A stretch of 49,213 nt of DNA from a virus. Below, in pieces: positions 14,883 to 40,399 of this stretch (position 1 is the first letter of the stretch; the number at the start of each line of letters is the position of its first letter). Below the pieces are notes generated by a model. That model worked only from the letters and a program-made list of their open reading frames with translations, had not been told where the DNA came from and did no database searches. The stretch lies in IMG/VR virus record IMGVR_UViG_3300012090_000181. One strand, written 5' to 3'. Both the position numbers and the translations under genes were made by a program.

Positions 14883-14958
14883 GTCATAGATCTATTATGC
14901 AACAAAAGAGTAGAATTCGGAAAAATTCTACTCTTTTGTTGCATAATAGATCTATGAC
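14883..14958. promoter_or_regulatory. Perfect 35-bp inverted repeat over the promoter and start of the AbiE-like operon
   Basis: GTCATAGATCTATTATGCAACAAAAGAGTAGAATT-cggaaa-AATTCTACTCTTTTGTTGCATAATAGATCTATGAC; includes CATAAT -10 and ATG 14954. Confidence 0.85.
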
Positions 14959-29269: not shown

Positions 29270-29860
29270 TCAACGCGAGCTGTTCATGCGGACGTAAGCA
29301 TGAACATGCCGATGGCGCCCGAGATGGACCAGAAAATGGTCTTCGACTACATCGTTGACCTGGCAACTGTACTGATACCAGCAGGGAATATCCAGATGCT
29401 GCTCCAGGAACCCGACGACATCGTGGTTGATCGTCAGCAGCCTGTTCGGCTCGCGCCGTTCTTTCTTCACCTGGCATTGCACCTGGTCATCGACACGATG
29501 CAGCTCGGTCGGACGGAGAACATCTCCATTCTCGATCTCCTTGGCCAGGATCTTGTTCTGACGCGCGAAAGCAGAGTCGGGTGCCGACATCGGGAAGAGG
29601 CTCTCGTCGCCGATGATCTCCTGCGGCAATGAACGATTGCGCACAGCCCAGAACAAGGTCCCACTCCAGCCATCTTGATCCAGGCAATAATGATCGCCAT
29701 GTGGAAACAGCGTCGACAGCATGACCGGCTCCAGACAATCATGCAGCGCGGCATAGGAATGATCTCCTGGGGTCTTCGGAAATGATCCATAGAGGATCTG
29801 ATCCACTGATGCATTCAGGCCGATATTCTGTGCACCTCCTTGATCACTGATGCCGGTCAT
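29270..29860 (-). CDS. ILYG-tagged protein, 'GxxxWAV' family
   Basis: ...ASVDQILYGSF; GWSGTLFWAVR; HDVVGFLEQHL; TAACAT 6 nt before ATG. Confidence 0.75.
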   Translation of the reverse strand: MTGISDQGGAQNIGLNASVDQILYGSFPKTPGDHSYAALHDCLEPVMLSTLFPHGDHYCLDQDGWSGTLFWAVRNRSLPQEIIGDESLFPMSAPDSAFARQNKILAKEIENGDVLRPTELHRVDDQVQCQVKKERREPNRLLTINHDVVGFLEQHLDIPCWYQYSCQVNDVVEDHFLVHLGRHRHVHAYVRMNSSR

Positions 29861-38626: not shown

Positions 38627-38932
38627 GTGATGAGCAGCTATTCTCCTCCTGATCCGTCTGCACTGGAAGCCGACTTGCTCGATTACCTGACCAGGCAAAC
38701 CCGGGTCGTGGATTTCTTGGAGATCAGTGATCATCTGTTCAATCTCTATCTCGATCCGGCCGGTGAGATGGGAGAGAAGGACTTCGAGCGCCTGACCTTG
38801 TTCGAGGATCATCAACTACCAGACCTGCTCGATCATCTTGTCGCAGATGGCAAGCTGCTGGTGTCCGCAGATGCGGACGGGTTTTGTAATCGCTACCAGA
38901 TGGCAGGCGCTGTTCCCGTGGCCGGCAACTGA
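38627..38932 (+). CDS. Small winged-helix-like hypothetical protein
   Basis: LLDYL...FLEISDHL...LLDHLVADGKL...RYQM. Confidence 0.6.
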   Translation: MMSSYSPPDPSALEADLLDYLTRQTRVVDFLEISDHLFNLYLDPAGEMGEKDFERLTLFEDHQLPDLLDHLVADGKLLVSADADGFCNRYQMAGAVPVAGN

Positions 38933-39129
38933 GCACTACATGGTCATCTCTTCGAGGGCGGCCTTGACCGGCTCCTTGGCGAGGCCGGTGCGCCGAGATC
39001 TGGAGCCTTACGGCTCCTTACCGAATTCTCGTAAAACCTCGTAAGAAGCAGCCAAGCTCCCCAGTCCTCGGGAGAACCTGAGTTCTCGGCGGCACCCGGC
39101 GAACAGCGTCAAGATGTGCTATGATACGT

Positions 39130-39362
39130 TCAATCGGGGGCACGCCCCCGGAGGAGCATGAATATGTGGAGCTTTCAGAAAAGCAGCGCATCAAAAATGC
39201 TCAGCCAATAATGGTTGATCGCAGGACAAACAGGAGTTCTTACCAGGGCGGGCAAGAAATGCTTGTCGGTGAATCTCGGAAGTCCTAGGATCGTATCCAT
39301 TTTTGATTGAGGTAAAGGCCCTGGAAACTATGAATGCCCCGTCATTGCGGCGGGGTATTTTA
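39130..39362 (+). ncRNA. Putative structured non-coding RNA
   Basis: TGCTATGAT extended -10 (39117-39125), no long ORF, many complementary segments, terminal intrinsic terminator. Confidence 0.55.
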
Positions 39363-39363
39363 T
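39333..39363 (+). terminator. Rho-independent terminator
   Basis: AATGCCCCGTC-attgc-GGCGGGGTATT followed by further T residues. Confidence 0.75.
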
Positions 39364-39782
39364 CGACTCAGGCCGGTGGTTCGGCAGGTAGATGGTTCAG
39401 CAGCTAAGCAGGTAGGCTAAGCAGAATAGCAGCTAAGCACATATTTTGCTGCCGAGATCCGTGGTTTCTCACCGCCTTGCAACGAACTCGAAGCTGTGCT
39501 ATACTGATGGAGATCCACGGGTCGTAGTCGACTGCGATCCCAGGAGGAACATATGTTCAGCGGAAGCTGGTTGGTCCGGAACAGGATGGCGCTCTTTTGA
39601 GAGGGTCCGGCAAAAACTGATTTGTCTTCGCGGTCCATCCGACCCGGTACTGTATCCACTTCACGTCATAAGCGGCCCTATAGAATGCCCCGGCTATCGG
39701 GGCATTCTCATGTCTGAAGGAGGAACAACGATACTGTTTGAGCAAGCCGTATCACTGCCTACGGTATAAGTCTGCATCGTCC

Positions 39783-40232
39783 TCAACTGCTGGTGCGATC
39801 CCGGCCCAGGAAAGCAGTCACCTTACCGACCAGTTCCTCGGAGGCGTCCATCGCTGCCTGATCCAGTGTTGCCATCACTCTCAGACGACCGACGCTCGGA
39901 GAAAACAGGTCCTGATAGACGGCAGCCACGTCTATGCGAGCTGTCGCCTTGATCGTCGGCCAAAGGAGCTGAGACAGCTGCTTCAGCATCTCATCGGCAT
40001 CGTCTTCCTCAGCGGCCAAGGGGATCTCTGCCAGCAGGCGTCTGACCGGATAGGACCCATCCAACACCTGAAGATCGATCACCAGCTTGCGCCTGGTGTT
40101 TCCGCTGCTGCCGATGGAGTCGGTGAAACGAGCGCCGATGACATGAGCCACAAGCTCCTGCTGAAATGCCGCCTTTGTCATCGCCGGCAGACTGCCATAC
40201 AAGATGTCATCGGCGCCCGGAGAACTGTTCAT
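39783..40232 (-). CDS. ILYG-tagged DUF669-like protein
   Basis: MNSSPGADDILYG; VAHVIGARF...SSG...KLVIDLQVLDGSY; TATCTT 6 nt before ATG. Confidence 0.7.
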   Translation of the reverse strand: MNSSPGADDILYGSLPAMTKAAFQQELVAHVIGARFTDSIGSSGNTRRKLVIDLQVLDGSYPVRRLLAEIPLAAEEDDADEMLKQLSQLLWPTIKATARIDVAAVYQDLFSPSVGRLRVMATLDQAAMDASEELVGKVTAFLGRDRTSS

Positions 40233-40399
40233 AGCTGAAAGATACTGCTTTCTTCGGCCGTAGATGTTCGGAACAAATAAGCTTCTTGAAGCTTATCCTG
40301 CCGTCGCCTGCTTCACCTGATGACCCGGGTTGAGTTGTTCTCTGCTGCCAGGCTCCAGATGATAAAGAAGCCATACTGCCTGGCAGCAGAGAATGATAC

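Follow-up and report, generated by a model that had tools for sequence, protein, structure and literature searches.

A gene-free spacer between two convergent genes raises the question of what, if anything, it encodes. The DNA analysed here, called the window throughout, is a 49,213-nt stretch catalogued as virus record IMGVR_UViG_3300012090_000181, and the original prediction had placed in the spacer either a structured RNA that stands alone or one that comes with a small peptide. That still seems the best reading, and it has since gained a sibling unit, a promoter type in common with the real genes nearby and a few compensatory base changes. We tentatively suggest, at a probability of roughly 0.45, that the unit first predicted (U1) and a second unit downstream of it (U2) are tandem paralogous sibling small RNA genes, possibly dual-function, each forming its own transcription unit. 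Judged by sequence, they would lie outside every described RNA family and make up a new, unproven candidate family of an ordinary kind. If real, this would be a new small RNA family in a lineage whose isolation shows in three proteins that match only themselves, and it would offer a clean case of sibling RNAs amid genes otherwise expressed as leaderless mRNAs; at present U1 and U2 are a reasonable candidate, not a discovery.

The locus and its host

The window is part of a 1.1-Mb contig (k141_311054) of the ENA metagenome assembly ERZ27241870, and its DNA is present also in Logan contigs of run SRR6448512. A search of 5.8 billion proteins with the products of the two genes that border the spacer (38630-38932 and 39783-40232) and of a tagged paralogue (29270-29860) returned, for each, a match to itself only. 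The host's PAP2 protein had one match, 53% identical, in a MAG labelled Solirubrobacter, and DUF2510 was found in the host DNA; both fit an uncultured, actinobacteria-like host, which appears to be an orphan lineage. Orphan, fast-diverging paralogues crowd the host region, and a gene of more than 3,000 aa with CLIPPER-type repeat domains starts ~5 kb beyond the window end (L132:1-3359).

The convergent gene downstream of the spacer is a real gene; it carries the genome's N-terminal tag and a leaderless-type promoter and shows weak similarity to a paralogue, and a plus-strand ORF at 39738-40238 overlaps it. The predicted model of the protein encoded upstream resembles small winged-helix proteins (MC2, DsrD and Fur/BlaI-like, TM 0.6-0.7), a likeness that may be taken as a lead only. 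The spacer itself looks non-coding, and none of its ORFs matched Pfam. A 55-aa ORF at 39121-39288 was considered as a protein and set aside: it has neither promoter nor RBS, begins within the -10 box and has no counterpart in U2, and it neither matched Pfam nor had a relative among 1.84 billion representative proteins.

Promoters and layout of the two units

Most called genes in the window lack an SD sequence and instead place a -10 box 6-7 nt ahead of the ATG, which is the mark of leaderless mRNAs. Gene starts follow this design rigidly, with TGCTAnnnT, exactly 6 nt and ATG (e.g., 4731, 5618, 22154, 27033(-), 29875(-), 31534(-), 33496(-), 36351(-) and 46253(-)). The window holds 27 TGCTANNNT sites, and at 12 of them an ORF of at least 50 aa starts 6-9 nt further on (mostly exactly 6). 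Because about 24 such boxes would be expected by chance, the box alone is weak evidence, which its conservation between U1 and U2 strengthens. Both units have perfect boxes of the leaderless type with no start codon at +7, and the RNAs predicted to start at 39132 and 39512 would be leadered or non-coding. The U1 promoter has no -35 match, and the start of the U1 RNA was placed by the 6-nt spacing of the neighbouring leaderless genes.

The original prediction had described in U1 a TG-extended -10, a CGGGGG/CCCCCG hairpin, a 17-codon ORF after GGAGGAG and a closing intrinsic terminator, and each of these was found in the sequence (Table 1); the terminator hairpin was absent from the list returned by a simple terminator scan. 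U2 has a promoter-type box and a terminator hairpin as well, and the two predicted RNAs share one order of elements: a 5' hairpin, a GGAGGA-AUG pairing, a long stem, an apical hairpin, a short tail and the terminator. The masking helix of U1 covers the RBS-proximal bases and the first AUG, and encloses a 37-nt hairpin insertion (39160-39196) that only U1 has. The long stem of U1 is predicted to consist of 39207-14/39297-304, a 1x3 internal loop, and the helices 39216-20/39289-93 and 39223-27/39282-86, with an apical hairpin around 39247-39267 at its tip. In U2, the corresponding parts are 39563-70/39656-62, the same 1x3 loop, 39572-79/39644-52 and 39584-89/39635-40, with two apical hairpins. 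The helix at 39223-27/39282-86 is the AGGAC/GTCCT pairing of the original prediction, whose GGCAAG/CTTGTC pairing (39251-56/39262-67) is present too.

Three short direct repeats lie between the units and could possibly be protein-binding sites. They are overlapped by a promoter-like 9-mer, TGCTATTCT, on the minus strand at 39431, which would transcribe antisense to U1.

Table 1. Coordinates of the units, their neighbours and the sequence blocks they share (positions in the window; transcripts, helices and sites are predictions).
Feature	Position	Strand	Basis or remark
Upstream gene	38630-38932	+	100 aa
Gene-free spacer, 850 bp	38933-39782		holds U1 and U2; 0 genes called by the source assembly
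U1 promoter, TG-extended -10 of TGCTAnnnT type	39117-39125	+	sequence
Predicted U1 transcript, ~231 nt	39132-39362	+	fold and local promoter spacing
U1 5' G/C hairpin, 6 bp	39135-39150	+	mean pair probability 0.79
U1 GGAGGA, ribosome-binding-like site	39150-55	+	sequence
U1 masking helix	39154-59/39197-202	+	6 bp; pair probability 0.97
U1 short frame, 17 codons	39158-39211	+	15 codons from second AUG at 39164
U1 long irregular stem	39207-39304	+	pair probabilities 0.96-1.00
U1 possible long-range or pseudoknot pairing	39243-49/39318-24	+	7 bp; inverted-repeat listing
U1 intrinsic terminator hairpin	39332-39360	+	T-rich tail; pair probability 0.97
Three short direct repeats, core GCTAAGCA	39399-39439	.	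between U1 and U2
U2 promoter: -35-like hexamer, 17-nt spacer, TG, -10	39477-39505	+	9/12 promoter matches
Predicted U2 transcript, ~205 nt	39512-39716	+	alignment to U1; fold
U2 5' hairpin	39519-39540	+	same place as in U1, sequence unrelated
U2 short frame, 15 codons and stop	39553-39600	+	5 nt after GGAGG
U2 long stem	39560-39666	+	pair probabilities 0.71-0.95
U2 terminator hairpin	39682-39708	+	perfect 11-bp palindrome; poor T tail; faces gene 39783-40232
Downstream convergent gene	39783-40232	-	149 aa
Shared block, promoter	39111/39491	+	11/12 bases (39111-39122)
Shared block, RBS	39146-39159/39539-39552	+	86% identical
Shared block, 24 nt, starts with AUG	39197/39553	+	repeat finder
Shared block, 10 nt	39293/39652	+	repeat finder
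Shared block, first 10 bases of terminator	39332/39683	+	identical

U1 and U2 are paralogues

Under a divergence-tolerant score, the local alignment of U1 with U2 ran end to end over both units and scored 274, whereas the 1,598 real window segments used for comparison reached 235 at most (z ~6.3), and none of 500 dinucleotide shuffles scored as high. Stricter scoring schemes gave a z of only ~2.7, which indicates that the units are old, indel-rich paralogues. A repeat finder returned five collinear blocks common to U1 and 39491-39716 (Table 1), and no similarity was seen in the flanks on either side. Since the similarity stops at the promoter and at the terminator, the duplicated module runs exactly from promoter to terminator, and this speaks in favour of two independent transcription units. 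The alignment places at least two homologous putative small RNA genes in one genome, as is the case for sibling sRNAs.

Sibling small RNAs that lie in tandem, each with a promoter and a terminator of its own, have been described before, for example OmrA/OmrB in E. coli, PrrF1/PrrF2 in P. aeruginosa and AbcR1/AbcR2 in Agrobacterium and Sinorhizobium (PMC4211561). Like these, U1 and U2 are two related small genes in one intergenic region, each with its own predicted promoter and terminator; diverged sequence parts their conserved blocks, and their predicted folds resemble each other. They have no sequence or Rfam relation to those siblings, however, and at 205-231 nt are 2-3 times longer than OmrA/B, PrrF1/2 and AbcR1/2 (roughly 80-120 nt). 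Unlike siblings of the OmrA/B type, they also carry an RBS-like site with a short frame and belong to an orphan actinobacteria-like lineage, in which no Hfq-type mechanism is to be assumed.

Evidence for a shared fold

In both independently predicted folds, the two blocks of highest conservation are paired and make up the base of the long stem (P 0.97 in U1 and 0.90 in U2). Because these blocks were set by conservation alone and their pairing was found afterwards, the argument is not circular. The 1x3 internal loop is identical in the two units, and the upper stem helices that correspond to each other differ in sequence. In both units the GGAGGA and AUG region is predicted to pair with the first bases of the conserved block that follows; in U2 the RBS/AUG palindrome closes on itself as a 4-bp hairpin, compared with the 6-bp helix of U1.

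Three compensatory changes were counted at places where identical flanks fix the alignment of these two sequences (n=2): G39156-C39200 in U1 is replaced by A39549-U39556 in U2, A39218-U39291 by G39574-C39650, and G39256-C39262 by A39614-U39621, the last in a register that the U1 ensemble disfavours. One more pair goes from G-C to G-U. Four of the five pairs with unambiguous changes still pair, for which we estimate, from two sequences, a chance of about one in ten.

A hand alignment of the units, fitted by eye to the helices and 52% identical, gave a consensus energy of -30.4 and an SCI of 0.69, with 18 pairs unchanged, 1 half-changed, 11 doubly changed and 0 broken, and column shuffling gave a z of -12.5. 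The consensus energy of a MAFFT alignment was only -5.4, so the shared fold rests on the hand-fitted alignment. A covariance model built from the U1 core (R1) neither detected U2 at E<=10 nor aligned it, and the tree-edit distance of the predicted folds was uninformative because a truncated U1 segment flips to a competing hairpin. A structure common to U1 and U2 is suggested by the predicted folds, not demonstrated.

Stability and competing folds of U1

The plus strand of 39128-39363 folds with an MFE of -91.7 kcal/mol (z -5.46), and none of 200 shuffles was as stable; the minus strand of the same segment gave a z of -1.76. U1 taken from its predicted start without the terminator had a z of -4.05, its hairpin segment in isolation (39150-39206) one of -3.36 and its core (39197-39310) one of -3.0. 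The stability of U1 is a property of the plus strand only. U2 is no more stable than its own shuffles, with a z of -1.8 with the terminator, -0.24 without it and -0.33 for the core.

The original prediction had added further pairings to U1, and all of them occur where it had placed them, but most are alternatives that U2 does not keep. A 10-bp pairing is perfect in the sequence (39190-39199/39298-39307) and falls in a segment missing from U2; TCAGCCA/TGGTTGA forms 7 bp including one G-U (39201-07/39212-18); and TCAATC/GATTGA forms an outer pairing (39130-35/39305-10), an inverted repeat that U2 has not kept and whose 5' arm loses two bases with the predicted start at 39132. In the full-length U1 ensemble each of these three pairings has a probability of ~0, and in these models they are competing folds rather than parts of one fold. 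Of the added pairings, only the crossing CCAGGGC/GCCCTGG pair, which is present in U1 (Table 1) and may be a pseudoknot, appears to have a counterpart at the aligned positions of U2 (39602-07/39674-79; 6 bp, one of them G-U, as judged by reading the sequence).

Short frames: coding or not

In both units an RBS-like site stands at a workable distance from a start codon that opens a short frame; the spacing from GGAGG to AUG is 3 or 9 nt in U1, for 17 or 15 codons, and 5 nt in U2, for 15. The strong GGAGGA of both units stands out in a region where most genes lack an SD sequence, and a 15-codon reading is possible for both frames. These features would suit ordinary leadered mRNAs for two proteins of 15-17 aa, in which RNA structure served only stability and termination, and small proteins are described as common in actinobacteria (PMC4633059). 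We regard such mRNAs as unlikely, although they are the alternative that survives best. The predicted peptides, polar or mixed in character, have only ~3/15 residues in common, the indels between the units do not preserve the frame, and the alignment shows no protein-like similarity between U1 and U2. The conserved start block has a single substitution (C/U at 39200/39556), which is matched in the paired RBS-side strand, and this compensation points to constraint at the RNA level rather than at the peptide level. Moreover, ~150 nt of structure in conserved order lie beyond the U1 stop codon, and 15-17 codons are about what a random AUG would yield at this G+C. The constraint on U1 and U2 looks to be on the RNA, and the short frames may still be translated.

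In the preferred reading, that of sibling small RNA genes, each unit would be transcribed from its TGCTAnnnT extended -10 promoter to its intrinsic terminator, and the RNAs are inferred to act as regulatory RNAs on whatever targets they may have. The frames of 15-17 codons may also be translated, which would make the RNAs dual-function sRNAs. Ribosome access would then depend on the opening of the masking helix, translation of the short frame would itself unpair the long stem at its base, and the short tail of each RNA could pair back into the stem. A strong RBS on a small RNA is unusual among leaderless genes and, if real, could mark a translation-linked regulator.

SgrS/SgrT and RNAIII/delta-haemolysin are dual-function sRNAs, that is, structured RNAs of a few hundred nt with a short, ribosome-accessible frame. 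U1 and U2 resemble them as structured RNAs with a short frame, whose translation is only predicted; their peptides (15-17 aa) are shorter than SgrT and delta-haemolysin and show no conservation from U1 to U2. Type I toxin mRNAs (hok, tisB and ibs) are highly folded small mRNAs with a masked RBS and a short frame, and U1 and U2 are like them in these respects and in lying in an accessory or defence-rich region. A type I toxin-antitoxin pair was considered and rejected, as the U1 and U2 peptides are polar or mixed and not membrane-spanning; beyond the one promoter-like 9-mer on the minus strand, no antisense unit was evident.

Searches for families, homologues and targets

No family reached its gathering score when the window was searched against Rfam, a check that the original prediction had proposed. 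Its statement that U1 is neither a tRNA nor a tmRNA was borne out by ARAGORN, which found 0 genes in the window, and by the Rfam result; RNase P and SRP likewise had no match among the 4227 Rfam 15 covariance models, and neither did 6S RNA, known riboswitches or ribozymes. At E<=10, the segment 38900-39800 (901 nt) gave three chance-level matches, to the rimP leader (E 5.4), a human lncRNA (E 0.96) and a Brucella sRNA (E 7.2). The raiA motif RNA, to which the original prediction had loosely likened short segments of U1, is a multi-stem RNA of ~200 nt found in actinobacteria and often ended by a terminator. U1 is like it in size, multi-stem form and terminator, but the resemblance did not hold at the level of the model, as no raiA match appeared even at E<=10, and no raiA-type gene lies beside U1 and U2.

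Searches for relatives gave a similar picture. The segment 38900-39800 had no blastn match among phages and plasmids, and blastn of the locus against the Solirubrobacter-labelled MAG returned nothing significant. Patterns based on the conserved blocks matched viral contigs 96 times, which amounts to chance plus one unrelated conserved coding gene, and metagenome contigs 25 times, about the chance estimate, with only the pattern bases alike; a stricter three-block pattern had 0 matches in viral contigs, where the tagged family, searched as an alignment, had no relatives. Model R1 found nothing at E<=0.001 in the Solirubrobacter-labelled MAG and 100 relatives (101 genomes, including the unpublished G004 and G090), a negative that means little because R1 misses even U2. 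The best non-self match of the hairpin-rich RNA model, at 21 bits, was a long, perfect palindrome at the start of an AbiE-like cassette (14883-14958), a generic hairpin match only. No third copy was present in the window, in the spacer flanks or in ~36 kb of adjoining contig (~8.4 kb downstream and ~27.5 kb upstream of the window), ~85 kb in all.

The units might also have no function, being either a decaying duplicate (e.g., of the promoter and 5' portion of a gene since lost) or hairpins that arose by chance in the spacer of a fast-evolving accessory island. A host region full of orphan, rapidly diverging paralogues would suit this explanation, as would the ordinary stability of U2, the lack of homologues in any collection searched and the lack of a third copy in ~85 kb. 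It sits poorly, however, with a pattern in which the promoter, RBS block, paired blocks and terminator are conserved and the rest has diverged with many indels, with 0 helices broken in U2 in the hand alignment, with the absence of frame-preserving or protein-like similarity between the units, and with the strand-specific stability of U1. We consider it unlikely too, and place it behind the small-protein mRNAs.

Neither unit showed an excess of complementarity to the mRNA regions that encode the shared N-terminal tag. The conserved stem block has GATCAACCA as its complement, and this sequence was counted 7 times in the window, compared with 0.85 expected from shuffles. Five extra sites (2442, 9997, 13572, 21941 and 29424) lie inside coding regions and have no link to gene starts, and the enrichment is probably a codon-usage effect.

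Terminators and the question of cis-acting control

Attenuators with a uORF or leader peptide, such as the whiB7 leader of mycobacteria, combine a promoter, a short translated frame, competing pairings and a terminator. U1 and U2 are like whiB7-type leaders in the order of these elements, but no gene follows them on the same strand: U1 is followed by U2 with its own promoter, and U2 by the convergent gene, and a leader-peptide attenuator was rejected. The absence of a sense-strand gene after either terminator argues against a classical leader or attenuator in general. A variant in which translation of the short frame or the long-range pairing tunes read-through of the terminator, antisense into gene 39783-40232, would act in the style of such an attenuator with no sense-strand gene downstream, and we judge this form of cis-acting control improbable. 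It would draw on the short frame, competing pairings and terminator that follow in that order in both units, on the U2 terminator with its poor T tail 75 nt from the stop codon of the convergent gene, and on the 39243/39318 pairing, which adjoins the terminator and has its U2 counterpart. That pairing does not overlap the terminator stems, though, so that no antiterminator is evident, and the frames are not enriched in any single amino acid.

A retron msr-msd RNA was also considered and rejected, as the flanking ORFs contain no reverse transcriptase family and U2 lacks the outer inverted repeat. It is very improbable that U1 and U2 are instead the first members of an undescribed class of pseudoknotted structured RNAs, protein-binding or catalytic rather than base-pairing sRNAs, in a tag-bearing accessory island and perhaps controlled by the winged-helix-like protein encoded upstream.

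Just past the U2 terminator, at 39718-39769, the 10-nt RBS block of U2 (AGGAGGAACA) occurs for the third time, without a mismatch. This copy is not followed by an ATG and has no further likeness to U1 or U2, and it may be a remnant or a chance match.
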